Of a DNA stretch of 49,466 nt, positions 22,662 to 49,466 are shown one piece after another; the stretch's first letter is position 1, and each line of letters opens with the position of its first letter. The notes beneath the pieces were generated by a model. The model saw only the letters and a program-made list of their open reading frames with translations. It searched no databases and was not told the origin of the DNA. This stretch comes from Candidatus Thorarchaeota archaeon (GTDB taxonomy: Archaea > Asgardarchaeota > Thorarchaeia > Thorarchaeales > Thorarchaeaceae), in contig JBHLRZ010000026.1 of the NCBI GenBank assembly GCA_048882045.1, forward strand, positions 1-49,466, in the 5' to 3' direction. The translations under genes were made by a program, and so were the position numbers.

Positions 22662-24740
<2,079 letters not shown>

Positions 24741-27012: not shown

Positions 27013-27071
27013 CACTGAACGACTTTTAGATTACATGAGACATGACCCTTCGGAGGAGAGGTAGTCGGACA

Positions 27072-28025
27072 ATGTCAAGGACAGACCGTAAGCAACCTGA
27101 TCGCTCAAAGAGCTCAGCAGGGTTCACATGTCCTGAGTGCGGAGGCCGTGAGGTCGTACAGGATCTCGAGAAAGGCGAACGCATTTGCGCCACGTGTGGA
27201 CTTGTGGTCAGTGAGCATAGGATTGACACTGGTCCTGAATGGCGAGCCTTCACGAGTGATGAGAAGGATGCAAGGTCTAGGGCGGGAGCCCCGACCAACT
27301 ACGCGATCCATGATAAGGGTCTTTCGACAATGATTGACTGGCGTGACCACGACTCTCAGGGGAAGAGGTTCACTGCCAAGAAACGTTCCGAGATATACCG
27401 CCTAAGGAAATGGCAGATTCGTACGCGAGTTCACAGCAGTGTGGACAGGAACCTGGCTCAAGCCATGTCGGAACTTGACAGGTTGTCTTCACAGTTGGGA
27501 CTAACAAAGAGCATCAAGGAATTGGCTGCGTTACTCTATCGAAAATTGATAGTCAGGAGACTTGCACGGAGCAGGTCGATTGACGCAATGGTTGGAGCAG
27601 CGATATATGCTGCCTGTAGACTGAGAAAAGCACCACGTTCCCTTGAGGAGATATCACGACACTCACGGGTGAGTAAAAAGAAGATAGGTCAACACTACCG
27701 CCTATTGGTCGAAAAGCTGAAGCTGAGAATGCCGATATCAGATCCAGCAAACTACGTCCCCCGCTTCATCACCCAACTGAACCTTCCTGGCAAGGTCCAG
27801 CAGAAGGTGCTTGAGATTCTTGATATGGCCAAGCAAAATCGAACACTGGTCACAGGGCGAGACCCAAGAGGTCTTGCAGCCGCTGCGATATACATCGCTT
27901 CGATCCTTATGGATCACAGAGTGACACAACGTGACATCGCGATGGCTGCAGGTGTGACTGAAGTAACGGTTCGGAACCGTTACAAGGAGCTCGTACAGAA
28001 GCTCAATATTACCATGGCGCCGTGA
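27072..28025 (+). CDS. tfb: transcription initiation factor IIB paralog 1
   Basis: CPEC...CATC Zn ribbon, DTGPEWRAF B-reader, two cyclin folds, GVTEVTVRNRYKEL. Start after GGAGG. Confidence 0.96.
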   Translation: MSRTDRKQPDRSKSSAGFTCPECGGREVVQDLEKGERICATCGLVVSEHRIDTGPEWRAFTSDEKDARSRAGAPTNYAIHDKGLSTMIDWRDHDSQGKRFTAKKRSEIYRLRKWQIRTRVHSSVDRNLAQAMSELDRLSSQLGLTKSIKELAALLYRKLIVRRLARSRSIDAMVGAAIYAACRLRKAPRSLEEISRHSRVSKKKIGQHYRLLVEKLKLRMPISDPANYVPRFITQLNLPGKVQQKVLEILDMAKQNRTLVTGRDPRGLAAAAIYIASILMDHRVTQRDIAMAAGVTEVTVRNRYKELVQKLNITMAP

Positions 28026-28120
28026 TAAACAAGTGTGTAGGAGTATAACGAATCTGTTTGAACATGAGGGTACTGGGACCTCGAAAAACCCAGAGCACGT
28101 TGGAGGGAACAAGTAAACAA

Positions 28121-29092
28121 ATGGCAACATCTAGGATAGATGAATCGACAAGAGAAGAAGTGATTTTGGATAGTCCTGGCATGACATGCCCCGATTGTGG
28201 TGGCAATGATGTCGTCAGGGACAATGAGAAAGGGGAGTTGATTTGTGCCACATGCGGTCTCGTGTTGAGTGACCATCGTATCGACACAGGACCTGAGTGG
28301 AGAGCATTCACCTCCGATGAGCGCGACACACGCGCCAGAACAGGTGCGCCAACAAGCTATGCACTGCATGACAAAGGTCTATCCACTATGATAGACTGGC
28401 GTGACAGAGACTCGAAGGGATCCGCCTTCACTGCAAAGCAGAGAGCGCAAATATATCGCCTCAGAAAGTGGCAGATCAGAACGCGAGTTCATAGCTCGCT
28501 GGACCGAAACCTAGCACAGGCAATGACTGAGATTGACAGGTTGTCCTCGCAACTAGGACTCTCGCAAGGACTGCGAGAACATGCTGCACGACTCTACCGC
28601 AAGCTCATAGCTGGAAGACTTTGGCGTAGTAGGTCGATCGATGCTACAGCAGCTGCTGCAGTTTACGCTGCTTGTAGACACAGAGGGTCGCCACGCTCGA
28701 TTGAGGAGATAGCCGAACACAGCAGGGAGAACAAAAAGAAGATATCAGCCCACTATAGGATGCTGGTCACCAAGCTGAAGCTTCGAATGCCTATCTCTTC
28801 CCCAGAGAACTATGTTCCAAGATTCATCTCAGATCTCAAACTCCCACCAGAGGTCCAGAGAATCTCTATGGAAATCATAGAAAAGGCAAAGCAGGTAAGA
28901 AACCTAGTCACAGGCAGAGACCCAAGAGGTCTGGCTGCGGCTGCAATCTATATCGCATCAATAATGACAGACAACAGGGTGACTCAGCGGGATATCTCTC
29001 AGGTTAGTGGTGTCACTGAAGTGACAATACGCAACCGCTACAAGGAGCTGGTGAGCAAACTTGAGCTCACTATGGCACCTGCTGCAGTATAG
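28121..29092 (+). CDS. tfb: transcription initiation factor IIB paralog 2
   Basis: Same motifs (CPDC...CATC, DTGPEWRAF, GVTEVTIRNRYKEL); closely similar to paralog 1. Confidence 0.96.
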   Translation: MATSRIDESTREEVILDSPGMTCPDCGGNDVVRDNEKGELICATCGLVLSDHRIDTGPEWRAFTSDERDTRARTGAPTSYALHDKGLSTMIDWRDRDSKGSAFTAKQRAQIYRLRKWQIRTRVHSSLDRNLAQAMTEIDRLSSQLGLSQGLREHAARLYRKLIAGRLWRSRSIDATAAAAVYAACRHRGSPRSIEEIAEHSRENKKKISAHYRMLVTKLKLRMPISSPENYVPRFISDLKLPPEVQRISMEIIEKAKQVRNLVTGRDPRGLAAAAIYIASIMTDNRVTQRDISQVSGVTEVTIRNRYKELVSKLELTMAPAAV

Positions 29093-35042: not shown

Positions 35043-35819
35043 TTGAGCTTGGTCATTCTCAAGATGATAACCCAACTCGAAGACCAGTTGATGGCAGCAT
35101 ACAGAGAAGCGAATGGTCGCGGTATGATAGACGTGACCCTACCACTGCAAGTCATGTTCAGTGACGCGGACAGGACTGTCCTAAAGGCTCGACTACGATT
35201 CAATGGGTCTGAGAAGGATGCTAGTCTCATCCTCATCATCGGGCTGAGGAGTGACATTCTCTCTCCGTTCCAGCGATTTGAATCAGACAGGCAAGGTAGG
35301 TTCGCACCTTGTGACATTCCAGGGATCGTGCCTGGTCTGGCGTTGATGGTCACCTCGATCAATTCAGGACTTGCACTAAGTGCTATCGCAAAGGATGATG
35401 CCACGAGATTCATCCTTGTGTTCGAGGGTCTTGCGGAAAGAAAGGGGGGAAGTCTCCGTGCACTCTCAGCGGTAGTGAGGAATTACATGAAGAAGTGGAG
35501 TGAGTGGACTGAGGTCCTCATGACCACGATTCGAAGAGACCCTGTTGTTTCGGGATGGGATCTGGATTGGAGGGAGTACTTGGCAGGAGAATCAGGGTTT
35601 GTTACGATGAACTGGTTCAAGCCAATGACATTCTCGGAGAGAGAGATAGCCCTGAATAGAGTGGTGGTGTCATCGAGGGCACTTTTGGCGTCTGTGCTCA
35701 GCAGCAGTCAGCTGAAGGACCCTATGATAGTTGGTCTTAGAGAGTGGTTGGACAGACTAGAACCACTTCCAGAGGTCATCAGTGGAGTACAGGCTAGTGA
35801 AGAGGAGGTTGAGATCTAA
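35043..35819 (+). CDS. hypothetical protein, first gene of the large recombination operon
   Basis: 258-aa ORF; its stop overlaps the next start (TAATG). Confidence 0.75.
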   Translation: MSLVILKMITQLEDQLMAAYREANGRGMIDVTLPLQVMFSDADRTVLKARLRFNGSEKDASLILIIGLRSDILSPFQRFESDRQGRFAPCDIPGIVPGLALMVTSINSGLALSAIAKDDATRFILVFEGLAERKGGSLRALSAVVRNYMKKWSEWTEVLMTTIRRDPVVSGWDLDWREYLAGESGFVTMNWFKPMTFSEREIALNRVVVSSRALLASVLSSSQLKDPMIVGLREWLDRLEPLPEVISGVQASEEEVEI

Positions 35820-36286
35820 TGCAAGTAGACGATTTTACTCGAAGTGTTCCCCGAACCCCGTTCAACATGCCACAGGTCTCCTGGCTTGCAGGAGCCGCGG
35901 CTGGAATGAGGATTGGAGGGAAGAAAAGTCCAGCGTGGCTTTGGGATGCTTTCTTCAACGACATCACTGAGATGATCCACCTCGTAGGTGATGTCGAGCC
36001 CGTTGATCCGGGCTTTGCACCAAACGAAGGAGACGGTCTCATCGGATCAGCCTTTGATGCGCTGGGTGGCTACATCAGTGTCACTGGTGAGATTACACCT
36101 GAGGGGCTCTACTTCAGGGTCCCAGTGAGATGTCAGAAGCAGGTGAAGGAGCTTCTGAATGGGATTACAGTACATCGTTCGGATGGAGAGATCATCGTTC
36201 CAGAATACGACATGCCAGCGTTTCTGAGACTTATACCAGTAGAAGGACCCCTGGCAGAGTGGCTTGAACAGGAGGAGATTGCATGA
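35819..36286 (+). CDS. hypothetical protein resembling a catalytically dead two-motif LAGLIDADG domain
   Basis: WLAGAAAGMR and LIGSAFDALGGYISV align by eye to LAGLIDADG motifs; GGAGG SD. Confidence 0.45.
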   Translation: MQVDDFTRSVPRTPFNMPQVSWLAGAAAGMRIGGKKSPAWLWDAFFNDITEMIHLVGDVEPVDPGFAPNEGDGLIGSAFDALGGYISVTGEITPEGLYFRVPVRCQKQVKELLNGITVHRSDGEIIVPEYDMPAFLRLIPVEGPLAEWLEQEEIA

Positions 36287-37362
36287 CAGAGCTTGAAGCC
36301 GTACAAGGAATCGGGCCGGCTGTAGCCAAGAAACTCAGGGACACCTATATCACAACTGCAGAGTTGCTGGCCGTCCAAAATCCTATCGAGTTGATGAAGA
36401 AAACAAAACTGGGAGAAGGAACCACAGAGAAAATCATCAAGAATGCAAGGTCTCTTGTTGGCAAGTTCGGTTTTCGCTCTGGGCTAGAAATTGAGAAAGA
36501 GATGGAAGAGATGCCACGCCTCACCACAGGAGTTGAGAAGATAGACACTGCACTGCGTGGAGGAATAGAAATCGGCTCGATCGTTGAGTTCTTTGGTCCA
36601 GCTCGAGGTGGGAAGACACAATGGGTTTCACAGCTGGCAGTAACCGCTCAGCTCCCGAGGGAGCAGGGAGGGCTCGAAGGCAGGGTCCTGTGGCTCGACA
36701 CCGAGAGCTCGTTTAAACCGTGGGTGATCCGAGCGCAGGCCATACGTCACGGTCTCGATCCGGATATCACATTGGGTAACATCGGGAGAGCAGAAGTCGT
36801 GCTATCTGGGCAGATAACGGAGATCTTCGAGAGCGTCCCGCAGATGTGTGCTGAACAGGACTACAAGCTCGTTGTGATTGACTCCTTCACAGGACTGTTC
36901 AGAGCCGAATACACTGGCTTAGAAAATATGCGGATCAGACAACAGGACATGAACAATTTGCTCAACCAGATGCGTAGAACTGCAACTGCCACTGGATGCA
37001 TCTTCGCTTACACAAACCAGGTCATGGCCAAGATCTCAACCTATGGTGGAAATCCGAACGCTCCTGTAGGCGGACATATAGTGTCCCATGCCAGTGACTA
37101 CAGGTTCTATACGAGAAGGACAAAGTCCGATGTGAGGAAGATCGAGCTTCAGGACAATGCGGGCTTGCCAGAGTTCGATGCCGAGCTTGTTGTCGGGTGG
37201 GGAGGATTATTCGCTGACTCCAAGACCAAGAAGGAGATTGAGCCACAGGTTCTCGAGTATTTCGAGAGACGTGGAGAAACCATTGACGTAGACAACGATG
37301 ACGCACCTGAGGAAGAAGCCGTCATTGAGGCTGAGACTGTTTCGGCAGGTGAGGGTGCGTGA
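36283..37362 (+). CDS. radA: RadA/Rad51-family recombinase (divergent paralog with acidic tail)
   Basis: N-terminal HhH (VQGIGPAVAKKL), FRSG polymerisation motif, Walker A GPARGGKT, LDTE, VVIDS, NQV...PVGGHIVSHAS. Confidence 0.9.
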   Translation: MTELEAVQGIGPAVAKKLRDTYITTAELLAVQNPIELMKKTKLGEGTTEKIIKNARSLVGKFGFRSGLEIEKEMEEMPRLTTGVEKIDTALRGGIEIGSIVEFFGPARGGKTQWVSQLAVTAQLPREQGGLEGRVLWLDTESSFKPWVIRAQAIRHGLDPDITLGNIGRAEVVLSGQITEIFESVPQMCAEQDYKLVVIDSFTGLFRAEYTGLENMRIRQQDMNNLLNQMRRTATATGCIFAYTNQVMAKISTYGGNPNAPVGGHIVSHASDYRFYTRRTKSDVRKIELQDNAGLPEFDAELVVGWGGLFADSKTKKEIEPQVLEYFERRGETIDVDNDDAPEEEAVIEAETVSAGEGA

Positions 37363-37814
37363 CCCGGGAGCGAGGGATGTTCAGAATCTACAGATGTGCA
37401 AAGTGTCGAAACATAGGATATCTCGTTGTTGAGAATGAAGAGGAAACCTCCCATTGCAGCCTTTGCCATGCTGTAGTTATTCATGAGGCAGGTATGGTCT
37501 ACGCTGCGACGATACAAGAAGCCCAAGCAGGCGTCCGTGAGCTGGTCATAGAGTCGCAGATGTCGAAAGTGAAGGCTGCAGGTAGTAGTCGAGGTCTCGG
37601 ACTCAAGCGCCGAGTTTACAATATAGTTGAATCACTTGTCGACCTCAATCGGGGACGACCTGTGAGTATTGAGAATGTGATGAGAGAATGCAGTGAGGCA
37701 AACATCGACCTCGGTCGAGCTATGAGATTTTTGGACTCCCTTGAGTCAGAGGGAATGATCCTGAATGATGGCATTTCGGTTTCACTGACAGCGGAGGCCT
37801 GGTCTGATGTCTAG
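37359..37814 (+). CDS. Zn-ribbon plus C-terminal winged-helix protein
   Basis: CAKC...CSLC; C-terminal VSIENVMRECSEANIDLGRAMRFLDSLESEGMI resembles RPA32/MCM-type wH. Confidence 0.7.
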   Translation: MTRERGMFRIYRCAKCRNIGYLVVENEEETSHCSLCHAVVIHEAGMVYAATIQEAQAGVRELVIESQMSKVKAAGSSRGLGLKRRVYNIVESLVDLNRGRPVSIENVMRECSEANIDLGRAMRFLDSLESEGMILNDGISVSLTAEAWSDV

Positions 37815-38433
37815 CACTGATGAACAAGAACATGTCTGGGTTTCAACCACTCCTCCGAATGTCCCGGGGAGCTCGATGATCAACCTGGTCAATCTACTGT
37901 TGCGAGAAACCGCACATCGCATCACAGTGTTGGATAGAGCAAGAGGACCAGACCCTGAGCTCTATGTTGTCACAAGGGTCGACTGGAAACATCCTGACCT
38001 TGAGAAACCAATGCTTCCCCAGTTGCCTAGTCTGCTATCGCTGCTAGAAACTCTAAGAGGTTCCAAGGGAGTTCCGAGAGAAATCAGATTGAATAGTGCT
38101 GAAGGAGTGGCGGTGTATCTCTCCACTGGAGTCAGGGTCTCATCGTTACCCAAGGACCCAAAGACAGCTGTGCAGGGACTCATGGCAATCATAGAAGAGT
38201 CGTTGGAACATCTCTTCTCCACAATGCGAGAGGTGGAGAAGTGGTTCTGGAAGGCTGCCCGTCAGAAAGGATTCAGTCCGGAGATAGTAGAGAGAATGGC
38301 TCGAGAAGAGGTCGGGTATAACTCTCGCGAGTTGATGCTAAGATTTCAGAGAATCCTGCACAAGTTCTTCTCACTGAAGTTCAGGATATACCAGGCAGAA
38401 GAACGATTGAGGGTGGAGGAGGAGTACGATTGA
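37807..38433 (+). CDS. hypothetical protein
   Basis: 208-aa ORF coupled to both neighbours; GGAGG SD. Confidence 0.75.
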   Translation: MSSTDEQEHVWVSTTPPNVPGSSMINLVNLLLRETAHRITVLDRARGPDPELYVVTRVDWKHPDLEKPMLPQLPSLLSLLETLRGSKGVPREIRLNSAEGVAVYLSTGVRVSSLPKDPKTAVQGLMAIIEESLEHLFSTMREVEKWFWKAARQKGFSPEIVERMAREEVGYNSRELMLRFQRILHKFFSLKFRIYQAEERLRVEEEYD

Positions 38434-40388
38434 CCACTGCGTTGACCGATCCAATGGCCTTGTTCCCTTATACACCAAGGCCTTCACAGGAAAAAGCGGT
38501 CGGTCTCGCAGCTGATGTCTATTCAAGAAAGACTGTCGGACTTTTGAGCGCTGATTGTGGAATCGGGAAGACCATTGCAGTCCTATCAGGCTATCTAGCA
38601 GCACGAGGACACGACGAGTCCGCCCGTTTGTTTGCCTTGACACGGACTCATTCACAGTCAAAGGTGTTTGAGAGTGAGCTCGAAGTCCTCAGATCGGTTA
38701 TGCCAAGGCTTACAGCAACAACCATGGTCAGCAGAGTCCATGTCTGTCCGATAAGGCACCAGATGGAGAATCTCAGCTCAACGGGTTTCATGAGAGCCTG
38801 CGCCAAGATGATCAAGACAGGTGCCTGTAATTACTACTGGGGATTCTACAAGAAACAGACAGACGGTCGTACAGTTATCAGGGATGAAATTAGAGGAACA
38901 ATAGATGACCTTCTAGACACGGGAGTTGTTACTCGAGAACGTGTCGAGGAACGGGCACAGGAGGAGGGTGTCTGTCCCTATGAAATGATGAGATGGTGTG
39001 CAAGAAGAAGTAGGGTCATCATCGGGCCCTATTCGTATTTATTCCGCTCTCGCATTCGTACCGCCCTCCTTGCATCATTAGGAGTAGCCCTTCAGGATGT
39101 GGACATTCTTGTAGATGAGGCACATAATCTCCCAGCACATGTGCTTGATGCTGAAACAGCTCATCTTAGTAACGATGACCTGAGATGGCTCAAGGAGAAC
39201 CATCAATTAGTGACCAGAGAAACTGGTCTGAGATGGATTCGAGAGGTCATCGACTTTCTTTGGGAAACCTTGATGGTAAATTTGGACAAGATGTACAATC
39301 GAAAAGAGCGTGTCTTAGACAAGTGGGACGTGTCACCCAGGTTCATCAAAGAAGATGACCTTGACTTGCTTCATGCTTCTGGTCGCCCAGGAATGAACGA
39401 TCCAGAGAACGCAAACCTGATTGAAACCCCGCTTGACAGACTCATCGAATTCCTGTATGCCGCTCTTAGAGCTGCAAAGAGTGACGGGTGGCATGTCACG
39501 CTCCAGAATACAAAATCATGGGAAGACAACATCCCATCTACAAGTTCAAAGCTTACAATACAACCACTGAACTCTTCGGGTCTCACTGCGCCGATACTGC
39601 GTGGGGCACGTGCCGCTGTACTGATGTCAGGAACTCTTAGGCCCCTTGAGTACTATGCCAGACTCCTTGGAGTCTCAGGTGCCATGGTCGAGAGTCTAGT
39701 TAGTCCGTATCCAAGGGGGACCAGACTCGTTCTTATTGACAAGAATCTCAATACAAAATACCAAACAAGAGGACCAGACCTTTGGAGAGAACTCGCCCTC
39801 AGAATATCCATCGCTCTCAAGGCAATGCCAGCAAACAAGAGTGCTCTGATTGCGTTTCCAAGCTACCAGATGCTTCACGAAGTCATGTCATATTCCATTG
39901 ACACTGGTTTTCGAGAGGTGCTTATTGAGACCAGAACTGAACGTGTCGAAACCCTTGCTGAGGCAATTTCTGAAAAGCCCCATGCAGTGTTCTGTGTCTA
40001 TGGAGGAAAGTTCTCTGAGGGGATAGATCTAGTGAGTGAGGGTTCCAGTCAGATAGACCTGATAATTGGAATCGGGATTCCTTTTGGCCCACCCACCAGC
40101 TACCAGGTTGCTCTCCAACATTGGTATGACTCTCGCTTTGGTGATGGCTCAGGATTCTACTATGGATCAGTCATTCCTTCGATAAGACAGGTGGCTCAAC
40201 TGATAGGACGACTGAGGAGAGCTCCGACTGACACTGGAGTAGTAGTGTTATTGGATAACCGTTTCATCAAACACCTGCAGGTGTTCGGAGAGGAGATAGT
40301 GTCAGACGTCTGGCCTTATCGAGATGTTGAGGAACTCGAACTAGCAATCAGCCAGTTTGTCAAAATGCAGGAGGATTTGGTACATTGA
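38430..40388 (+). CDS. XPD/Rad3/DinG-family Fe-S SF2 helicase
   Basis: FPYTPRPSQ Q-motif, ADCGIGKT Walker A, four Fe-S cysteines (VCP, RACA, GACN, VCPYE), DEAHNL, MSGTL, GKFSEGID, QLIGRLRR. Confidence 0.93.
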   Translation: MTTALTDPMALFPYTPRPSQEKAVGLAADVYSRKTVGLLSADCGIGKTIAVLSGYLAARGHDESARLFALTRTHSQSKVFESELEVLRSVMPRLTATTMVSRVHVCPIRHQMENLSSTGFMRACAKMIKTGACNYYWGFYKKQTDGRTVIRDEIRGTIDDLLDTGVVTRERVEERAQEEGVCPYEMMRWCARRSRVIIGPYSYLFRSRIRTALLASLGVALQDVDILVDEAHNLPAHVLDAETAHLSNDDLRWLKENHQLVTRETGLRWIREVIDFLWETLMVNLDKMYNRKERVLDKWDVSPRFIKEDDLDLLHASGRPGMNDPENANLIETPLDRLIEFLYAALRAAKSDGWHVTLQNTKSWEDNIPSTSSKLTIQPLNSSGLTAPILRGARAAVLMSGTLRPLEYYARLLGVSGAMVESLVSPYPRGTRLVLIDKNLNTKYQTRGPDLWRELALRISIALKAMPANKSALIAFPSYQMLHEVMSYSIDTGFREVLIETRTERVETLAEAISEKPHAVFCVYGGKFSEGIDLVSEGSSQIDLIIGIGIPFGPPTSYQVALQHWYDSRFGDGSGFYYGSVIPSIRQVAQLIGRLRRAPTDTGVVVLLDNRFIKHLQVFGEEIVSDVWPYRDVEELELAISQFVKMQEDLVH

Positions 40389-40987
40389 ATTTCAAAGACA
40401 TTTCAGAACTCCGATGGTTCGGACTCTCTCTATTCATTATAATATTGATTCTGAAAATAGGGCTTTCACTAAATGATGTCATTGGGATTGCACTGATTGG
40501 CACAGGTCTAGTAATCTATGTCTACACCTTCATCCTCGACATGCGCTCAATCGAATCACCCAGAGTACTCTGGGATGATGCTAGAGGGATTATGGCTACT
40601 GTTCGACCATGGCAGGTTGAAGTGTGTGCTGCACGACTACTAGGTAGTGTACCCCTGGGAATTGACCTATCTCACTCAGCAAGAAAAGTGCTTCAGGCAA
40701 TGCACTCACGTTTCCTAAATGAAGAGGGAGGATCTCTTCTTTTCTTCATATCACGTCCTATGGGTGATGGGACCACAAAAGTGGGTCTACTAGTCAGGAG
40801 AACTGCGTTTCGACTGCCAAGTTTGGTACCTAAGTTGGATCACCTTGTGCAACTCCTGATGGCAGATGTCATGATCCTTGAAGGTGCGATGCGTGCTGCA
40901 TATCCACACTTACCAGTTGAGAGAGCTGAGAAGCAAGATATACTCATAGTGAATAAAGGAGGTATAGAATCAATTGTCCCGCATTGA
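40385..40987 (+). CDS. membrane protein (two N-terminal TM helices plus soluble domain)
   Basis: WFGLSLFIIILIL and VIGIALIGTGLVIYVY; TTGA overlap, GGAGG SD. Confidence 0.75.
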   Translation: MNFKDISELRWFGLSLFIIILILKIGLSLNDVIGIALIGTGLVIYVYTFILDMRSIESPRVLWDDARGIMATVRPWQVEVCAARLLGSVPLGIDLSHSARKVLQAMHSRFLNEEGGSLLFFISRPMGDGTTKVGLLVRRTAFRLPSLVPKLDHLVQLLMADVMILEGAMRAAYPHLPVERAEKQDILIVNKGGIESIVPH

Positions 40988-41279
40988 GTATCGCTCAGGT
41001 GTGGAGATTCCGTTTGATGTCAGCGAAGAAGACATCATGAGGGCTCTTGAAATTGGTCATGGGTACAAATGGACTGTCCTCATTAAACATCCGGTAGTTG
41101 TCGCACATGGCGCACCAACCATAGGGAATATGCCAGAGCTGTTGATGTCGGGAGATTGTACTTTGATTGTTGATGGAGGCGATCCTGCATATGTTGAACG
41201 TCTCAGACAGGTTCTAACAATGCTACAGAGACATTCTCAGAGTCACATAGCTAATTCGGAGGGAGTGACTGTTGGGTAA
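40974..41279 (+). CDS. small hypothetical protein
   Basis: 101 aa, AGGAGGT SD, overlaps both neighbours. Confidence 0.7.
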   Translation: MSRIEYRSGVEIPFDVSEEDIMRALEIGHGYKWTVLIKHPVVVAHGAPTIGNMPELLMSGDCTLIVDGGDPAYVERLRQVLTMLQRHSQSHIANSEGVTVG

Positions 41280-43617
41280 ACGTCTGATTCTTGGAACAGA
41301 ACCAGAGGTTGACCCTCTACAGGAGATTTCAGGCAAATCAACACAGATTACAACTGGAACGGAAATCAGATGGGAAAGCAGAGAACTTGGTCGTCCATTG
41401 GCCCGCATCTCAATCATATCGTTACTAGCAATTGCAATTGGATTTGCATTTCCGATTCTCGTGACCTTTACTGCAGGAATCTTCCTGTTCTTTCACTATG
41501 TTACGCCAAAGATCAGAGAGCAACGAGAGATCTCGCAACTACTCCAGGGATCCTGGCAGGAGATACCAGAGGATGATGTGTCATATATTGTGAATCCTGA
41601 AAATGTTGAGCTACGAGGAACAGGACCTGCACATTATTCGGTTGCAATGGATCTTGGAAAAGCAAGTCCTACACTGTTGGGAAATGTTGGATCTCTAGTA
41701 AGATCTATCGACACCTCAAATGGTTTTGGACTCTATGTTACGATGAGGAAAGAGAAGATAACTAGAGCGATGGATGAAGAAAAAATCTCCAACATGTTGG
41801 AGGGATATCTCACAGCACTATCAAAGGGGGAATTGGATGCCTATCTTACAAGAAGAAGCGGGCTCTGGGCTACACATGTGTCAATAATTGGACATATGAA
41901 GGATGATGCACAGGTAGATACCTTTGAAGCATCAGTAAGAGGAGCAGTCCCTGAGAGGGATTGGAAACGATTAAAGCCAGTTGAACTCCATTCAAGGTTA
42001 ATTCAACAAAAGTTGGACAGACAACAAGGATGGTTCTATGCAGTTGGCTCTGAGCTATCAGAATGGTTGGTTCAGCTAAGGAGTGAATTAGCTGCTGAAG
42101 TAGGGAGCAATATTCCGGGTCAATTCATAGCTCCGATTAGAAGCAGACCTGACGACTATAGATTGGGAGTCATACTAAATCCAGATACTCTTCAGACAGG
42201 TCCATCTGCTGGATTAGCTCATAGAGATTTAGAAGCAGGCACCCTACTGTGTGGAGGAACAGAACAAAGTAGAAACAATGTCATAACGTTGATCACAGAC
42301 GAACTACTCAAGGCTGGGAAACGGGTCATTGTAGTCACTGGATCTTCGACACTTGCAAACTTAACTGTCTTGACTGACGCGTCTGTTCATCTGGAACTTG
42401 GTAGAGACCTCGTATTGAATCCGATAGATGCAGAAGGTGTATCACGAACAGATTATGTTCCTCTTTTGATCTCTGCTTTACAGGTCGTTGCAGCTCAGGA
42501 TCTGCGAGGGGCAGCTGAACTAGAGATTGCAATTGGTCGTGCAGTATCATTAGGTAATGCTACTCTCGCTGATGTCAGATTTACATCAGATTTTGATAAT
42601 CCCGAGTCAATAGACGATAGATCACAAACTGGAAACCTAAAACCATCTAAAAAATCGTTGATAGGAATGGAAGCGATACGGTCTCTGCATATGGGACCAG
42701 CTGCAAGAGCATTCTATGGAACACAGACTGTTCCTACAAGGAGACTCGCGGATCCGTCATTGACAGTAATCAGAGTGTCTCTTGGTTCTACCGGATTGGA
42801 TAGTTTCGCTTGGAATTTGATGTGCATGAAGTTGGCTGGTTTGAATCCAGATCCGAATGTGGTTGTTATTCTCGATGGTGCTGAGAATATGAGAATCAGA
42901 AACCGTCGATTCATGAAGCACGATTCGTTCTCTGAACGGCTTCTGAAGAACTTGGTTAGGAGAGGACCTCTTGTGTTGTCTCTCGAGCATCCAGCAGATA
43001 TGGCACCTGGTGCAATTGGAGTTCTAACTTCTTGTGTATCGTTGAGACTCAGGGAATCAGTAGATATACACTATGCCGCAGATTTACTCGGACTTAACGT
43101 CATTACAACAGGTATGCACACCAAAGCGAGAATCTCTCCAAGGGAGTCATCCTTCTTGAGAGTAATGGATGACGATACTGTACTTTTGGTTCATGATGGC
43201 ACAGAGACCTGTCAACCTGTTAGACTGGCGACACCACCGCTACTCGAACCAAGAACCAGTGGCGACGTGTCAGATCGAGTTGACAAGCTTGTACCAACAG
43301 AGGCTAAGCATCAGTCCATACACGAACGGACTCTTCTCGACACAGTGGCTGGAGATGGTAGAAACCTCGCTATCATAGTATTGAAGCTTCTTGAGAGGTA
43401 CGAGCCCCTCACAGAGGAAGCAGTTAGGAGATTTGTGATCGCGAATGGAAACGATCCAAACCCAGATGTTGAAGGGATTCTAGCAAGACTGGAACACGCG
43501 AGCATGATACTACGTGGACATGAAAACCACAGTGGAGTATCTTATGCTAATTTCAGAATCACAATGAAAGGATCAATGGCTCTGAAGCAGTCCGATGAGG
43601 TGGGTGCTATTACGTGA
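41272..43617 (+). CDS. membrane-anchored HerA/FtsK/VirB4-superfamily protein with degenerate ATPase motifs and C-terminal winged helix
   Basis: N-terminal TM hairpin; TLLCGGTEQSRNN at the Walker A position; LNPID; VVVILDGAEN at Walker B; LVLSLEHPADM...CVSLRL matches the hhhATQ-P-D..N..h-FRL region. Confidence 0.65.
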   Translation: MGKRLILGTEPEVDPLQEISGKSTQITTGTEIRWESRELGRPLARISIISLLAIAIGFAFPILVTFTAGIFLFFHYVTPKIREQREISQLLQGSWQEIPEDDVSYIVNPENVELRGTGPAHYSVAMDLGKASPTLLGNVGSLVRSIDTSNGFGLYVTMRKEKITRAMDEEKISNMLEGYLTALSKGELDAYLTRRSGLWATHVSIIGHMKDDAQVDTFEASVRGAVPERDWKRLKPVELHSRLIQQKLDRQQGWFYAVGSELSEWLVQLRSELAAEVGSNIPGQFIAPIRSRPDDYRLGVILNPDTLQTGPSAGLAHRDLEAGTLLCGGTEQSRNNVITLITDELLKAGKRVIVVTGSSTLANLTVLTDASVHLELGRDLVLNPIDAEGVSRTDYVPLLISALQVVAAQDLRGAAELEIAIGRAVSLGNATLADVRFTSDFDNPESIDDRSQTGNLKPSKKSLIGMEAIRSLHMGPAARAFYGTQTVPTRRLADPSLTVIRVSLGSTGLDSFAWNLMCMKLAGLNPDPNVVVILDGAENMRIRNRRFMKHDSFSERLLKNLVRRGPLVLSLEHPADMAPGAIGVLTSCVSLRLRESVDIHYAADLLGLNVITTGMHTKARISPRESSFLRVMDDDTVLLVHDGTETCQPVRLATPPLLEPRTSGDVSDRVDKLVPTEAKHQSIHERTLLDTVAGDGRNLAIIVLKLLERYEPLTEEAVRRFVIANGNDPNPDVEGILARLEHASMILRGHENHSGVSYANFRITMKGSMALKQSDEVGAIT

Positions 43618-45809
43618 TGGCTGTGTCAGATGTTTCCATAAAGGTAGAGCAGATGATTGGGAAAGCAGGCATTAAACCTAGAGGAATCCAGACTATCGCA
43701 AAGGACAAGGGGTTGTTAGATGGAAAGAGTATGATGGTCTGTAGTCCCACTGGCAGTGGGAAGACACTGGTCGGAGAGATGGCACTACTCAGGGCTGTGA
43801 CTACTGGTAGGAAAGGGATGTTCTTAGTACCTTTGAGAGCTTTGGCTGTCCAGGTTACACAAATCTTGAAGGAACGGTATGAGGTATTTGGAATAGCAGT
43901 AGGACTCAGTAGTGGTGATTTCCAGAATTCTGGAGAGGACTTGGTGGATTATGACATTCTTGTCACTACGTATGAAAGGGCGGATTCACTATTACGTCGT
44001 GGAGTTGAATGGATTAGCGAGATAGGAACCATAGTAATTGACGAGATTCAGACCCTTTCTGACCCTGGTCGTGGAGCTCGTCTCGAGAGTCTGATACTCA
44101 GACTCAAACGAATTTCATCAGAACTCCAAATCATTGCACTCTCAGCAACAATCGGAGCTCCTGACGAACTAGCCGAATGGATAGGTTGTGATCTCATCGA
44201 GTCTGATGAGCGTCCTGTTCCTCTTGTTTGTCAAGTGATTTCAGCGGCTAACAAGAATCACAGCATCAAGAACTTGGTCATGTCGACGGTTCAGGGTGAT
44301 GGTCAAGCAATTGTCTTCAGCAGGACCAGGAGGGAAGCTGAAGCACAGGCACTTCGACTCGCAGAAGATGTCGGACGCCAATTCTCCACAAAGGAGAAAG
44401 ACCAACTGGATTTGGAACTCCAATCCGTAGAGAACTCCACAGTGAACATACCATCTGATGTCAGAGCCCTACTTCATGATGGCACAGCATATCATCATGC
44501 AGGTCTGGACTATCAGACAAGACGACTCATAGAGAAATTATTCAACAGGGGGCTCGTTCGTTTGATTTGTTCAACATCGACGCTTGCTGCAGGGATGGAC
44601 TTACCTGCCAGAACTGTGGTGCTCTCGAGTGTGAGGTCACCCCGTGACTATAGAAATTACATGACTGCAAACAGTGTTCATCAGATGCTTGGAAGAGCTG
44701 GTCGTCCTGGCCATGATCGAGTCGGTTTTGGTGTGATAGTTGCTGGGAGTACTGGCGAAGCAGACATGATCAAAGAACGTTACTTCGACAGAATTATTGA
44801 GGAGGATGGAAAGACAGAGAATCTCATTCCTAGATATAATCCAATATCCAGTGTTCTAGGAGAGCCTAATGCTCTGGCTGAGCAGTTGCTAGTCATGTTA
44901 GATATGTTGACCTCGGCTTCAATTGATGATGTTGAAAACGGAATATTGGGCGAATCATATCTGATCCATTGTGCAATCCGAGATACACAGGCTCCTATGA
45001 GAGTCTTACATCTCGGAGAGATATCAGCAGAAGCTGCAATCGAGAGCCACGCACTACCCGACACCATTCACTCGGCACGAAAAGGCGTACTTGGCGAAAC
45101 TAGGATTCGTGAACAGCATGAAACAGTCATAGGAGGGCTTGTAGCGGGTTTTCAAGGCGGACAATTCACCTGCCGATTCTCTGCAAGACTCTCAGCGGCA
45201 GGTACCTCAGAAGGAGCAATGTGCTCATGCGGTAAGCCAATGTCTGAATCTGGGATACTTTGTCACCATCTTGTGGCTTTAGGTATGAGTGCCGCAAAGG
45301 AACTAGGCTCACTTGCTGACTACGTTATTCCACTGGCGCTGTCCGAAACTTCGCCACTAGGGCTCTTGATAAGGCTGGGACTGGTCGAGGGAGATGAGGA
45401 GAGTAGGCTAAAGCCTACACGACTTGGTAGAGCTACGAATCGACTCTATCTAAGTATTGCAACAGTGAGAGAACTCCTTGCTCTCATTCCAACTACTGAG
45501 GATAGCAGGATGCTTCTCTGGTTACTTCGCCACCTAGTTTCTCTCGAGAGTGGATTAGGTCTTGATGATTCATTTGACAACATGCTGGCTGCATTGGTTT
45601 CAACTGACATCCCATTGAAACAGATTGCAGACCAGAATGACATCAGTCTGGGGGACATGTATGGCTTGATTGAGACCTCTAGATGGCTCCTTCATTCGAT
45701 TGCTGTTGTAGCAGAGCTAGGAGGTCTCTCGAAAGTACATGGGATGTCAAGAAGTCTTCTGGAAGCAATAGAAGACAAATTCGGAAATCGAGGAGAACAC
45801 GACAGATGA
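43614..45809 (+). CDS. Hel308/Ski2-like SF2 helicase with an inserted SWIM zinc finger
   Basis: SPTGSGKT, PLRALA, TTYE, DEIQ, LSATI, YHHAGL, TSTLAAGMDLPA, QMLGRAGRP; CSC-x10-CHH at 45222-45269. Confidence 0.92.
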   Translation: MMAVSDVSIKVEQMIGKAGIKPRGIQTIAKDKGLLDGKSMMVCSPTGSGKTLVGEMALLRAVTTGRKGMFLVPLRALAVQVTQILKERYEVFGIAVGLSSGDFQNSGEDLVDYDILVTTYERADSLLRRGVEWISEIGTIVIDEIQTLSDPGRGARLESLILRLKRISSELQIIALSATIGAPDELAEWIGCDLIESDERPVPLVCQVISAANKNHSIKNLVMSTVQGDGQAIVFSRTRREAEAQALRLAEDVGRQFSTKEKDQLDLELQSVENSTVNIPSDVRALLHDGTAYHHAGLDYQTRRLIEKLFNRGLVRLICSTSTLAAGMDLPARTVVLSSVRSPRDYRNYMTANSVHQMLGRAGRPGHDRVGFGVIVAGSTGEADMIKERYFDRIIEEDGKTENLIPRYNPISSVLGEPNALAEQLLVMLDMLTSASIDDVENGILGESYLIHCAIRDTQAPMRVLHLGEISAEAAIESHALPDTIHSARKGVLGETRIREQHETVIGGLVAGFQGGQFTCRFSARLSAAGTSEGAMCSCGKPMSESGILCHHLVALGMSAAKELGSLADYVIPLALSETSPLGLLIRLGLVEGDEESRLKPTRLGRATNRLYLSIATVRELLALIPTTEDSRMLLWLLRHLVSLESGLGLDDSFDNMLAALVSTDIPLKQIADQNDISLGDMYGLIETSRWLLHSIAVVAELGGLSKVHGMSRSLLEAIEDKFGNRGEHDR

Positions 45810-47431
45810 CAATCGTAAGGGAAGAGGACGAAACAGCGGAAGGAGAAGATCTAGAAAAAGGACATTCAGCAGAAGCAACAATTGCTCACGACATAACTGA
45901 TGCACTAAGATTGACGGATCATTTTACAGCTAATTATCCCAATGGTCTGACCCTGGGCGTGCGGTTGGAGGCTGTACCTGGAACGAGAGGTGTTCATGTC
46001 GATACAGTCTACGTTCTAGACTTGCGAGAGGCATCCTTTGGAAAGAGTAGTCTTGCAATGAGAGCTGCAGTTCTTGAAAGCATCAACAGGTCCCTGATCC
46101 GGGTACTTGGAGATGTCGGGCTAGAGGAGCTTATGCATGAACAATCAGTCTTGACACCGTGGGGGCGTGTGCGGCTTCCACTGCTCAGGGGAGCAAAGGG
46201 CAAGTCCTCATCGCTCATTCATGAAACACGTACAGTGTATGTCATAACCGAAGGGACCAAGCCTACCATGGATCTGTCATGGCTCACAGATAGTGGACGT
46301 GTCGTTACTCCAGAAGAATTTGTACTCATCAGAAAGAGTGACACACGTTCTAGACTACCGAATCTTAAGAAGTCCGTCACAGCTTACAAATGGGGACTCC
46401 TTGAAAACGGTTTCACTCGTGGTTGGTTTGGTGTACTTGCTCTTGCAAGTCTAATCGTTGCTGTTTCTGCAATCCTCATTGTTCTCATACAAGGTTCTGG
46501 ATCGCTCATATTGCCACTTGTAGCTAGTGCACTCTCAGTTATTGTAGGAGGTTGGCTTCTCAGGTCTTCAAGAAACTCGATAAATGGATTTGTTACAACT
46601 GTTTCTAACGAACAAGAATTGTTGGATCGCATAGGAGATGCTGAGAGAATCTCTCAATCAATCATCACCAATGAGGACAAGCTGATCTTGATTGGAGACC
46701 TCAATTTCGTCGTATCACCCCTCATTGCTGCTGCAGGGAAGTTTCTCGAAGAGGGAAATGTAGACGCCGCTGTCAGTTCAGCATGTGCAGTGCTCGATGA
46801 GTGTGTCAGGCTAGCGCCTATCGAGAGTGGCACAAATTCATTGCTCATGGAATCAGCGGATGAAGGGCTTCGCAAATTTATGGGATTATTCGAAGACTTG
46901 GGTGGTGTAGAAGAGAAGGAGGCACTAGCACTTGCTTATGTTGGTCTAACTGGTCATATGACAAAACCGATTGATTTTGATGAAGCTGTTACACACCTCG
47001 CTGAGCTCAACAATGCCCTCTATCATGTCGGAGCTCTCAGACCGGATATTAAGGAGGGGATTGACAGTCACCTGAATAAACGAGCCATGATGCAAACAGT
47101 AGAAGCGATAGACAAGGAGCTTTCTCAAGAAGAACCACAAATCCCAGAGGCTCCCCCATCAGGATCTGAAGAGGTGTTCCAACCAGAAATGGAGAATCCA
47201 GTAGAAGTTGAATTAAACTCGATGATTCGTGGAGCTTCAGTTGACAAATCTGAAGAACCCAAAGAGCAAACTTCTGATTTGGATTTAACAGCAGCTGATA
47301 TTGTTTCTGGAAGAGCGAAAAAACGGAAGAAGAAAATCAAAGACACAAAGCAACTCTCTCTGTTGGACGACCTCGATCTTGGTGAGACCGCCAGTGGTGT
47401 TGGAGAGGAGCGTGAATCTGCAAGTGTCTAG
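45806..47431 (+). CDS. two-TM membrane protein with acidic tail, basic patch and QLSLL motif
   Basis: True start is likely ATG 45806 (GAGGAG SD, ATGA overlap with the helicase stop). Central TM hairpin; KKRKKK...KQLSLLDDL. Confidence 0.75.
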   Translation: MTIVREEDETAEGEDLEKGHSAEATIAHDITDALRLTDHFTANYPNGLTLGVRLEAVPGTRGVHVDTVYVLDLREASFGKSSLAMRAAVLESINRSLIRVLGDVGLEELMHEQSVLTPWGRVRLPLLRGAKGKSSSLIHETRTVYVITEGTKPTMDLSWLTDSGRVVTPEEFVLIRKSDTRSRLPNLKKSVTAYKWGLLENGFTRGWFGVLALASLIVAVSAILIVLIQGSGSLILPLVASALSVIVGGWLLRSSRNSINGFVTTVSNEQELLDRIGDAERISQSIITNEDKLILIGDLNFVVSPLIAAAGKFLEEGNVDAAVSSACAVLDECVRLAPIESGTNSLLMESADEGLRKFMGLFEDLGGVEEKEALALAYVGLTGHMTKPIDFDEAVTHLAELNNALYHVGALRPDIKEGIDSHLNKRAMMQTVEAIDKELSQEEPQIPEAPPSGSEEVFQPEMENPVEVELNSMIRGASVDKSEEPKEQTSDLDLTAADIVSGRAKKRKKKIKDTKQLSLLDDLDLGETASGVGEERESASV

Positions 47432-48080
47432 ACATCGATTGATAGAACAGCTGGGTCTCCGAGGTCTGATTCACATCTGGGGAGAAGCTGGTTCAGGAAA
47501 GACGATGTTAGCAAGCAAGATAGCTGCTGATGAGTCAAGGTGTTCAAAGGTCGAGTGGATAAACACGGACTCAAAGCAAAGCTTTGTAGGTCGACTGAAA
47601 CTGGATATTAATGATCAGGGAGGCAATTTGGACAATGTAATTGTTTCAATTGTAAATGATAGGAGTGCAATCAGAGAACTGATTCTTAACATGGGAAATG
47701 TCGTCGAACCAGGGGTCTCACTTGTGGTGATTGACCCGATAACAAGAGTCTTGGATATGTCTAGGAAAGACCCAAACCTTTGGGGGAGAGAGATGGTCGA
47801 GGTGGCTCTTCCGTCTTTGGTTGGTTTGGTGAAGAAGAAGAACGTGAATGTCATCATAACAAGCGAAGCTCGAACCTTGGACGAACAGACAACTGTTGCA
47901 GTCCATCATAAGACGATATCGAAGTGGGCGGACTATGAGCTTCATATAATTAAAAGCCGGGATGGTGGAACTTCTCAAATCATTAGGGAAGATGAAGACA
48001 CTGTGCAGATGGGATTGCTAGGTCTACAAGAGAATTCTCTTGTTCTTACTTCAAGTCATTCCAGTGTTCTGGAGGTGTGA
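47424..48080 (+). CDS. RadB-like RecA-fold ATPase (no N-terminal HhH domain)
   Basis: IHIWGEAGSGKT Walker A, WINTD, LVVIDPIT, IITSE. GTG start at 47424 or 47412. Confidence 0.8.
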   Translation: MSRHRLIEQLGLRGLIHIWGEAGSGKTMLASKIAADESRCSKVEWINTDSKQSFVGRLKLDINDQGGNLDNVIVSIVNDRSAIRELILNMGNVVEPGVSLVVIDPITRVLDMSRKDPNLWGREMVEVALPSLVGLVKKKNVNVIITSEARTLDEQTTVAVHHKTISKWADYELHIIKSRDGGTSQIIREDEDTVQMGLLGLQENSLVLTSSHSSVLEV

Positions 48081-49049
48081 GTGTTGTTTGGAAAGGGTCT
48101 GATAAAGATCATTGGATTGATTATCACGGGGGCAATCGCACTTGCAGGAGGAGCAGAACTTCTGGCATCAGTCGTTTCGGTTGTTCTATCCTTTCGATCT
48201 GGGAATCCATTACCACTCGTAACTGTTGTCATCATAGCAGTCGTACTTCTACGTCTTGTAAAGCGCCAGTCTGAGAATACTCCTGTCAAATTGATATTGA
48301 ACATTGCTTCGTATGCGGCTTCCGGATATGTAGCTGTGGTGACTTTTGTCATAGGACTACCCTACGGACTCGTTGCAGCAGTCGCGACATCAGTCATTGC
48401 AGTAGTTCTCTGTTCATTTATGGGAGACCCTTCATCAGTGTTTGAGCAGCTGCAGCTTGGATTGCCAGGTTTGTTTCTGGGAGTAAGAATTGATGGACTC
48501 ACCAAGAGAGTAATACCTGTTGGAAATGGCATGTCATTTGCTCTCAATAAGATCCACAATCTGATTTTGATCGACAACTCAGAGAGAGAGAAGATTGTGC
48601 AATTGATGCGTGACAGACCACGGCTACCGGTCTCACTTACTCATTTTGAGGACAGCGATGTGTTATTTATCACAACTGAAGACCAAGTACTTGTTGAAAG
48701 TGTCAGGTCCCTTCTTGTCTCAGCTCGGATTGACACGAACGGACCTCCCAGTCCTCTCCTCGGTGAAGTGATTCAAATGATTCCAATCATAGATGAGAGG
48801 AACGGTCTCTTTACGAGGAACTACAGATTGGCTAGAGATGAAAAGTCAGTGTCTGACTTATTGTTAACCTCACCAATACGGATGATAGTCTTCCCCTCTG
48901 ACTCAGGTCCAATGATTATCGTCCCAGATAGTGAGTCCACCGGACTCAATGTAGAAACTCTACCTACAGGTCATGAACACGATATCTTGTTGAATCGTGA
49001 TTTCAAATCGTTAATGGAGGAGAGCAAACCCGTTGAGAGTTCCACTTGA
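48081..49049 (+). CDS. membrane protein (about four N-terminal TM helices plus soluble domain)
   Basis: Hydrophobic first ~110 aa; GGAGGTG SD; abuts the RadB-like gene. Confidence 0.75.
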   Translation: MLFGKGLIKIIGLIITGAIALAGGAELLASVVSVVLSFRSGNPLPLVTVVIIAVVLLRLVKRQSENTPVKLILNIASYAASGYVAVVTFVIGLPYGLVAAVATSVIAVVLCSFMGDPSSVFEQLQLGLPGLFLGVRIDGLTKRVIPVGNGMSFALNKIHNLILIDNSEREKIVQLMRDRPRLPVSLTHFEDSDVLFITTEDQVLVESVRSLLVSARIDTNGPPSPLLGEVIQMIPIIDERNGLFTRNYRLARDEKSVSDLLLTSPIRMIVFPSDSGPMIIVPDSESTGLNVETLPTGHEHDILLNRDFKSLMEESKPVESST

Positions 49050-49466
49050 ATCGATTAACGAACCTCAGAGCCTTGAGATTCGGTTCACACCTAGAGTCCT
49101 TGATAGGACATTTGGGAGTCTAATTCAACCTAGGTCTATCAGTGTCCTGCATGGTGATGAGCGAGCTCCTCTCAGTATTCTTGCTCATACCATCGCAGTT
49201 TCGGTCGCAAAGACCAATCATGATGCAATATGCATCTTTCTTGATTCTGGATCAAACTATAGTCCCGCGTTAGTCAGAACATTATCAACTGACAACGAGG
49301 TTCTAGAGAGGATATTAGTCGGGAATGTTATGGGCCTCTCAGACGTTCTAGAATTGATTGGCAACCTAGATCCATTGTCAGAGGTACCAATCATCATCTT
49401 GGACAATCTGACTGGTGCACTGAATCTCACAGGTGCTCCTGGATCAAAAGGAAGACAAAGAGAACT
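49033..49466 (+). CDS. inactivated RadA/RecA-like protein (truncated by window end; absent from the ORF track)
   Basis: Manual translation from TTG 49033: MRVPLESINEPQSLEIRFTPRVLDRTFGSLIQPRSISVLHGDERAPLSILAHTIAV...CIFLDSGSNYSP...VLERILVG...IIILDNLT...RQRE. RecA-fold layout with decayed Walker A. Confidence 0.75.
   Translation, partial: MRVPLESINEPQSLEIRFTPRVLDRTFGSLIQPRSISVLHGDERAPLSILAHTIAVSVAKTNHDAICIFLDSGSNYSPALVRTLSTDNEVLERILVGNVMGLSDVLELIGNLDPLSEVPIIILDNLTGALNLTGAPGSKGRQRE

Follow-up and report, generated by a model that had tools for sequence, protein, structure and literature searches.

Two systems that import DNA into archaeal cells, Ced of Sulfolobales and Ted of Thermoproteales, are domesticated type IV secretion systems (T4SSs) (PMC9905601), and they are among the closest described counterparts of the gene array reported here, which begins at position 35043 of a 49,466-nt stretch of Thorarchaeota DNA (the window; contig JBHLRZ010000026.1 of assembly GCA_048882045.1), runs to its end and continues on a second contig to give an operon of 15 genes. 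Like Ced and Ted, the operon is a chromosomal, non-mobile archaeal gene set with a membrane-associated protein of the VirB4 fold and small partners that have two transmembrane (TM) helices, and a proposed coupling of transfer to recombination is common to both. Ted loci, too, adjoin recombination genes, namely HerA and Rad50 (PMC9905601). The differences lie in the parts. While CedB and TedB are active ATPases, the VirB4-fold protein of the operon (gene 9) has no Walker A lysine in any of the relatives examined, and neither the 6-7-TM CedA/VirB6-like channel nor the CedA1/VirB2-like pilin is recognised in the operon. Conversely, Ced and Ted loci contain no RadA, XPD, Hel308 or FEN1 paralogs, and similarity between them and the operon is confined to the level of the fold and of language-model features, with none at the level of sequence. 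We propose, with about an even chance of being right, that this accessory operon encodes a membrane-anchored DNA-processing and recombination machine, separate from housekeeping repair, whose role is the import of DNA or its exchange between cells, coupled to homologous recombination. Such a transfer role would be the most likely one by analogy with Ced/Ted and bacterial competence, and would be achieved with parts that are nearly all different.

Three further systems bear comparison. In bacterial competence (ComEC, ComFA, DprA-RecA), as is generally known, a superfamily 2 (SF2) helicase motor at the membrane pulls single-stranded DNA to a recombinase and its mediator, a sequence of activities that the operon could also provide, whereas the channel and mediator proteins are not known to be homologous to any in the operon. 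The HerA-NurA and Mre11-Rad50 set is likewise an operon in which a ring of the HerA/FtsK superfamily together with nucleases feeds RadA-dependent recombination; HerA, however, is soluble and ATP-active, NurA, Mre11 and Rad50 are absent here, and gene 9 is membrane-anchored and matches VirB4 better than HerA. The network of RAD51 paralogs, HELQ and Shu proteins in eukaryotes resembles the operon in bringing together a recombinase with RecA-fold paralogs, some ATP-active and some ATP-dead, as well as a helicase of the Hel308/HELQ type and a SWIM-type CxC...CxH motif, and the host of the operon is an Asgard archaeon; it differs in that it is not membrane-bound, the Pfam SWIM model is not reached by the motif here (7.8 bits), and the RadA tree described below was built without eukaryotic sequences. 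Searches of the literature library consulted found no description of this gene set, which goes unmentioned in a survey of archaeal Ski2-like helicases (PMC10946056), in an Asgard RadA phylogeny from which long-branch sequences were removed (10.1101/2025.05.23.655837) and in a survey of Asgard defence systems (PMC11291487).

The window is the whole of contig C26 of a 3.6-Mb Thorarchaeota metagenome-assembled genome (93% complete), so that the host is an Asgard archaeon, a setting that an earlier reading made without database searches (the sequence-only reading) had raised as a condition for wider interest. From 35043 to the end of the window lie 14 open reading frames (ORFs) on the plus strand, and every junction is overlapping or abutting: for genes 1-14 these are, in order, −1, −4, −4, −8, −4, −4, −14, −8, −4, −4, −8, 0 and −17 nt, and GGAGG-type Shine-Dalgarno (SD) sites stand upstream of most starts. 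This confirms the coupling at all junctions of 14 same-strand genes, with SD sites at most of them, that the sequence-only reading described. Two starts were corrected. That of gene 11 was set at 45806 (ATG, SD site, ATGA overlap) instead of 45683 and that of gene 12 at 47424 (GTG, SD site) instead of 47301, while gene 1 more likely starts at 35064, where the alignment of orthologs begins, rather than at 35043. The last 77 nt of C26 (49390-49466) are exactly identical to the first 77 nt of contig C51 (L047 1-77), an overlap of a size typical of assembler k-mer overlaps, and therefore the contigs join and the operon runs on into C51. With this downstream contig retrieved, gene 14 is complete at 235 aa, ending at C51:351, and is followed after a −4 nt junction (GTGA overlap) by gene 15 (C51:348-1355, outside the window). 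The gene after this is convergent, which marks the end of the operon. A PolB2-type module, which had been anticipated downstream of gene 14, is thereby rejected, since the next gene encodes a FEN1-like nuclease and the operon then ends at the convergent gene.

The one T4SS-like part of the operon is the product of gene 9 (41272-43617), a membrane-anchored protein of the VirB4/HerA fold that consists of a TM hairpin, an N-domain, a P-loop-type domain (residues 286-658) and a C-terminal winged helix. It has no Pfam match, and a profile search of PDB sequences gave nothing below E 0.1. In its AlphaFold2 (AF2) model, in which the core has a predicted local distance difference test score (pLDDT) of about 85, the fold is recognisable, with Foldseek matches to VirB4/TrwK and HerA at E 1e-13, and residues 286-658 superimpose on VirB4 of Thermoanaerobacter (4ag5) with a VIA Z of 30.2 and a root-mean-square deviation of 2.6 A over 324 residues. 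The other fold matches have lower Z values (DndH-C 24.8, HerA 24.4, TrwB 21.9), and the ESM Atlas feature neighbours of gene 9 include DUF87/HerA and CedB clusters. The winged helix is seen in the model, and the C-terminus of a relative matches HTH_24. The HerA/VirB4-like assignment made from the sequence is thus supported by structure, and its TM anchor by hydropathy; the same reading had called the product of gene 2 LAGLIDADG-like, which found no support. At the Walker A site, gene 9 has GGTxxSR (GGTEQSRN in the copy in the window) with an invariant Arg, and the Lys-Ser/Thr of a functional Walker A is absent from 16 Thorarchaeota orthologs and from seven relatives from other Asgard families. 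From the model and these alignments, gene 9 is taken to be a VirB4 fold that is catalytically dead for lack of the Walker A lysine.

The other recognisable proteins of the operon belong to families of recombination and repair. Gene 3 (36283-37362) encodes a divergent paralog of the RadA recombinase with an N-terminal helix-hairpin-helix (HhH) domain, intact Walker A and B motifs and an acidic tail. It matches Pfam Rad51 (189.5 bits, 7.9e-56) and HHH_5, passes the NCBIfam RadA model PRK04301 marginally (266.9 bits, cut-off 259, against 477 for the canonical RadA on contig C3) and stays under the cut-off of TIGR02236 (238.9 bits, cut-off 361). Gene 3 and the canonical RadA of the same genome are 36% identical, and the Walker motifs GPARGGKT and VVIDS are kept in the 16 orthologs aligned. 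In a tree of Asgard RadA sequences, which contained none from eukaryotes, gene 3 and the RadA paralogs linked to related modules fall outside the canonical Asgard RadA clade (support 94/97), with those of different Asgard families in a basal polytomy. Over the same species pairs gene 3 is 58, 62, 55 and 50% identical while canonical RadA is 88, 84, 82 and 77% identical, and hence gene 3 evolves faster.

Two RecA-fold proteins accompany it. Gene 12 (47424-48080) is a RadB/KaiC-like ATPase with intact Walker A and B, matched by Pfam AAA_25 and KaiC at about 25 bits, below their cut-offs, in which Walker A reads GEAGSGKT and the patterns GxAGSGKT and hhhhD are kept in orthologs. Gene 14 (49033-49466, continuing to C51:351) is RadA/RadB-like and has no Walker A, the position being taken by HxxER[AS]PL in 14 of 14 orthologs, one of which matches Pfam Rad51 at 25 bits. 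Neither protein reaches the RadB equivalog cut-off of 172 bits (gene 12, 44.8; gene 14, 33.6), so that, judged by these profile scores, genes 12 and 14 share the RecA fold yet are no RadB orthologs.

The operon also encodes two helicases and a nuclease. Gene 6 (38430-40388) is an iron-sulfur helicase paralog of the XPD/Rad3/DinG family, with Pfam DEAD_2 and Helicase_C_2 (both over cut-offs) and HBB, which scores 161 bits against rad3 TIGR00604 (cut-off 247; housekeeping XPD on C11, 302) and keeps motif I, DEAH, four Cys and motif VI in 19 orthologs. Gene 10 (43614-45809) is a Hel308/Ski2-like SF2 helicase paralog, with Pfam DEAD and Helicase_C and a CxC-x10-CxH insert at residues 537-552. The NCBIfam Hel308 models match residues 11-393 only, at best with 347 bits (cut-off 887), while the housekeeping Hel308 on C2 matches over its full length (851 bits), and Helicase_dom4_arc reaches 21.8 bits against a cut-off of 27; judging from these profiles, gene 10 has only the SF2 core of the Hel308 type, its C-terminal half being unmatched by Hel308 models. 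Motifs I, II (DEIQ) and VI and the CxC-x10-CxH stretch are kept in all 22 orthologs. The SWIM label given to this stretch lacks sufficient support: the motif is strictly conserved, but Pfam SWIM (PF04434), the sole family reported for it, gives 7.8 bits and E 3.3 (cut-off 19.6). Gene 10 scores 279-350 bits with the helicases found in modules of other Asgard families, more than the 241 bits that it reaches with the Hel308 of its own genome. Gene 15 encodes a FEN1/XPG-like nuclease (XPG_I 64.7 bits, 1e-17, over cut-off; fen_arch 122 bits over full length, cut-off 352) that keeps SNDxD in 14 of 14 orthologs, SESE and YDG having been read in the copy of the window genome only. In 13 of 14 orthologs its last eight residues are a PIP box, QxxLEQW[LFI], and in the remaining one they read QTTLESFV.

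The catalytic motifs of genes 3, 6, 10, 12 and 15 are conserved in all orthologs, and the gene list of the sequence-only reading (RadA, XPD-like, Hel308-like, RadB-like, dead RadA-like) was right in outline by Pfam, NCBIfam and motif checks. It had also proposed checking for separate canonical radA, xpd and hel308 genes elsewhere in the genome, and these exist, the respective scores of canonical and operon copies being 477 vs 267, 302 vs 161 and 851 vs 347 bits. In addition, C11 encodes a housekeeping RadB (Pfam Rad51, 59 bits), and tblastn alone showed another FEN1-like gene, on C19, with 26% identity to gene 15 of the genome G001. Since canonical radA, radB, xpd, hel308 and fen1-like genes are all present elsewhere, the copies in the operon are divergent paralogs.

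All the enzymes that can be recognised are paralogs of repair or recombination proteins and the FEN1-like nuclease carries a PCNA-binding motif, which would also fit a membrane-tethered system for repair or fork restart that transfers no DNA and instead anchors broken or stalled chromosomal DNA for recombination, for example under stress. The winged helix of gene 9, reminiscent of the FtsK gamma domain, agrees with this, as do the large domains of the TM proteins, which look cytoplasmic, and the lack of a recognised channel or pilin. Such a system would, however, leave unexplained why the conserved core should be a protein of the VirB4 fold and not a simple anchor, and why large surface proteins with signal peptides recur in the modules of distant Asgard archaea. 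Housekeeping copies of the repair genes, moreover, exist besides the operon, and the block can be dispensed with (see below). Repair alone, although the main alternative, is regarded as unlikely.

Interleaved with the enzymes of the operon are four TM-anchored proteins, the products of genes 7, 9, 11 and 13, which by hydropathy have 2, 2, 2 and 4 TM helices, respectively. Gene 7 (40385-40987) encodes a TM hairpin at its N-terminus, with helices at 11-29 and 32-50, and then a domain of about 150 aa; gene 11 (45806-47431, 541 aa) a beta-rich N-domain, a TM hairpin near 243-272, a helical domain and a disordered, charged tail; and gene 13 (48081-49049) four TM helices near the N-terminus followed by about 190 aa that form a soluble C-terminal domain, a layout that is supported by an alignment of 13 orthologs. 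The remaining proteins are as follows. Gene 1 (35043-35819) encodes about 251-258 aa and gene 2 (35819-36286) 155 aa; gene 4 (37359-37814) is a small protein with a zinc ribbon, its CxxC...CxxC pattern read from the sequence, and a probable C-terminal winged helix; gene 5 (37807-38433), which precedes the XPD-like helicase, is a soluble protein of 208 aa; and gene 8 (40974-41279) is a small soluble protein of 101 aa and unknown function. None of genes 1, 2, 5, 7, 8, 11 and 13 has a family match in Pfam or NCBIfam. Gene 2 has no family match even at E 10, which leaves its LAGLIDADG reading without family support. Profile searches of PDB sequences with genes 1, 2, 5, 11 and 13 gave nothing below E 0.1, and gene 5 has no ESM Atlas match. 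Structure searches, suggested for the unplaced and membrane proteins, resolved gene 9 and left gene 11 with no informative fold: its AF2 model (pLDDT 64) has no Foldseek PDB match at E 0.001 or better, and a wide VIA search returned generic helical hairpins only (Z 9.6 or less). A complex prediction for the C-terminal domain of gene 13 with gene 14 (the G001 pair, with alignments) scored 0.00, which speaks neither for nor against binding.

The operon is conserved among Thorarchaeota. Of 85 genomes of the same family searched with a gene 9 profile, 53 have a full-length ortholog, and such orthologs also occur in the only other family that the order contains. The same 15 genes occur in the same order in every long-enough locus of more than 20 Thorarchaeota species, in line with the sequence-only reading, so that the array is not due to chance. 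Synteny of the 15 genes extends across genera at 30-89% identity with no frame breaks, and it includes the family-less proteins, whose orthologs within Thorarchaeota are 57-78% (gene 1), 48-83% (gene 5), 39-65% (gene 7) and 28-67% (gene 8) identical, gene 8 also being conserved in position. Synteny also takes in the GH3 gene upstream and the genes downstream, and across the genus the operon keeps its position and its divergence tracks that of the species. The same position, the syntenic flanks and the conserved order together indicate that the locus is chromosomal and apparently inherited vertically within the family.

An exception is informative. In the congener G011 (92% complete), contig C97 (L066 6265-9488) carries the GH3 gene, gene 1 (71% identity), gene 2 (59%), 54 bp and then the convergent downstream gene, and genes 3-15 (13 genes) are missing as a clean block between kept flanks, with no gene 9 or gene 10 ortholog found elsewhere in the genome. 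Because flanks and genes 1-2 are kept while genes 3-15 are gone, the block is a dispensable cassette, and because the flanks of G011 are no more distant in similarity than those of operon-bearing species, its absence is a probable loss. Within the 15-gene operon, the 13 genes 3-15 are taken to be the functional block.

A block that is absent as a unit and contains a VirB4-like protein, the hallmark of conjugation, might be thought the remnant of a domesticated mobile element, namely the replication or transfer module of a conjugative element or virus, particularly as Ced and Ted are themselves domesticated T4SSs (PMC9905601). This is very improbable. No integrase, relaxase or repeat boundaries were seen, and the stop of gene 2 overlaps the start of gene 3 (ATGA), so that there is no insertion scar where the block begins. 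The constant position, the divergence that tracks species and the lack of matches on viral contigs (no relatives of gene 9 were found on those of IMG/VR) also argue against it.

Patchy occurrence across Asgard families and the clean loss in one congener are, on the other hand, what might be expected of anti-virus or anti-plasmid defence, in which incoming DNA would be sensed by the membrane proteins and degraded by the helicases and the nuclease. Known defence systems do include proteins of the HerA/VirB4 fold and helicases that resemble Hel308 (SIR2-HerA, DUF4297-HerA and DndH are among the fold matches), and the PADLOC DinG model matches gene 6 ('typeIV_DinG', 263 bits) and the HamB model gene 10. 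These matches are nevertheless generic, since the housekeeping XPD (319 bits to the DinG model) and Hel308 outscore the operon copies, and the other operon proteins have no PADLOC match, gene 14 being represented in that scan by its G001 ortholog alone. No defensive role suggests itself for a recombinase of the strand-exchange type, a pair of mediators and a flap nuclease with a PIP box. The locus, moreover, is fixed and syntenic amid housekeeping genes and is not part of a variable island, and no relatives were found on viral contigs. To our knowledge, fifteen genes are also far more than known defence systems contain. A defensive function is accordingly rated as quite unlikely.

Outside Thorarchaeota, other Asgard families were hit both by the profile of gene 9 and by the C-terminal half of the gene 10 protein. 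A gene 9-like and a gene 10-like gene lie on one contig within about 11 kb of each other in at least 17 genomes from seven other Asgard families, and therefore this type of operon is not restricted to Thorarchaeota. All of the linked helicases examined are closer to gene 10 than the Hel308 of their own genome is, and the CxC...CxH motif is present in three of the five that are full-length. Other parts of the operon recur around this core: a divergent RadA paralog is found at a distance of at most about 13 kb in four genomes, one from each of four families, profile homologs of gene 4 in the modules of G025 (3.5e-12), G130 (1.2e-5) and G308 (5.5e-4), profile homologs of gene 12 in those of G160, G130 and G031, gene 5 in G025 (4e-11) at the same position, and a gene 15-like protein in one module. 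In the loci examined there are also several multi-TM proteins nearby, as well as large proteins with a signal peptide, a C-terminal anchor and an M28-peptidase-like or alpha/alpha-toroid domain. As a separate observation, in one large Asgard family (f9) the gene 9 relative (L059 8267-12094, L061 8482-12375) is 1275-1297 aa long and has two TM hairpins. Its N-terminus is longer by 300 aa, a TM hairpin and a soluble domain that are laid out like genes 7 and 8 ahead of gene 9; profile searches did not confirm homology of this extension to either gene, and it may represent a fusion.

A giant surface protein with alpha-toroid, immunoglobulin-like (Ig) and MG domains is encoded inside the operon in G025, and 1.3-3.7 kb downstream of it in the genus of the window genome. 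In the latter genome it is a 2300-aa protein (C51:4972-11874), 3.6 kb downstream of the operon, with a prenyltransferase-type alpha/alpha toroid and Big_1, Big_3_5, MG2/MG4 and filamin domains; a toroid protein is also present in the G031 module. Between the convergent neighbour of the operon and this giant gene are two adjacent genes of 198 aa each (C51 3462-4058 and 4239-4835) that have no Pfam match. The idea that the giant gene was lost together with the block in G011 was rejected, as a full-length homolog (43% identity) is present there on another contig.

How the parts might work together as an apparatus for DNA import or exchange can be sketched as follows. Gene 9-like proteins would form a ring at the cytoplasmic face of a complex built by the small TM proteins, and this ring, itself unable to pump, would hold DNA through its winged helix. 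Motor and unwinding activities would be supplied by the two helicases, which by analogy with their families are presumed to be of opposite polarity. The resulting single strand would be coated by the RadA paralog with the aid of the two RadB-like mediators and paired with the chromosome, and the FEN1-like nuclease, recruited by PCNA, would trim the flaps.

Several considerations count against this proposal. Direct evidence is lacking for DNA transfer, for expression and for contact between the proteins. Among the operon proteins no polytopic channel like VirB6, CedA or ComEC is recognised, the TM proteins having four TM helices at most and all large domains being probably cytoplasmic; nor is a pilin recognised, and the 15 genes include none that evidently encodes a small secreted protein of two helices. 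The sole T4SS-like part, gene 9, is catalytically dead. For seven to eight proteins neither a fold nor a family can be recognised, which leaves fewer than half of the parts to carry the model. Genes 1 and 2, which stay behind in G011, may be a separate unit and perhaps lie outside the machine, and the link between giant surface protein and operon, which is not obligatory given that G011 keeps the protein without the block, is suggestive only.

If the proposal of a transfer and recombination machine is true, Asgard archaea possess a dedicated, membrane-bound recombination machine of which only one part is homologous to known DNA-transfer systems, that part being catalytically dead, and hence a new solution to the problem of moving and integrating DNA, in the lineage closest to eukaryotes. 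In that setting the origins of RAD51 paralogs, of HELQ and of sex are open questions, and relevance to the recombination mediators of eukaryotes is a lead. A bolder extension would have the operon be the elaborated form of an ancient, Asgard-wide and envelope-spanning apparatus by which cells exchange chromosomal DNA and recombine it, with a toolkit (the RadA paralog, mediators of the RecA fold that are ATP-dead, a Hel308-like helicase bearing a motif of SWIM type and a flap nuclease with a PIP box) evolutionarily continuous with the RAD51-paralog/HELQ/Shu network of eukaryotes; in the lineage from which eukaryotes arose, it would be a prokaryotic forerunner of sexual recombination. We see only a slim chance of this. 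The presence/absence polymorphism seen with G011 and the reduced versions in other families offer concrete handles for testing.

The surroundings of the operon are housekeeping or metabolic (CysRS, LigA, TFBs, GH3) and do not form a defence island. About 7 kb upstream of the operon are tandem TFIIB/TFB paralogs (window 27042-28025 and 28058-29092), which are 96% and 89% identical to those of the congener G011; in Sulfolobales, a TFB paralog drives a DNA-damage regulon that includes Ced and Ups (PMC9905601). Further upstream the window encodes, on the minus strand (22662-24722), an NAD-dependent DNA ligase of the bacterial type (LigA), which comprises adenylation, OB, HhH and BRCT domains, here in an Asgard archaeon, and, also on the minus strand (5932-8037), a 701-aa protein whose only annotated part is a DUF6345 domain (181 bits) at the C-terminus.

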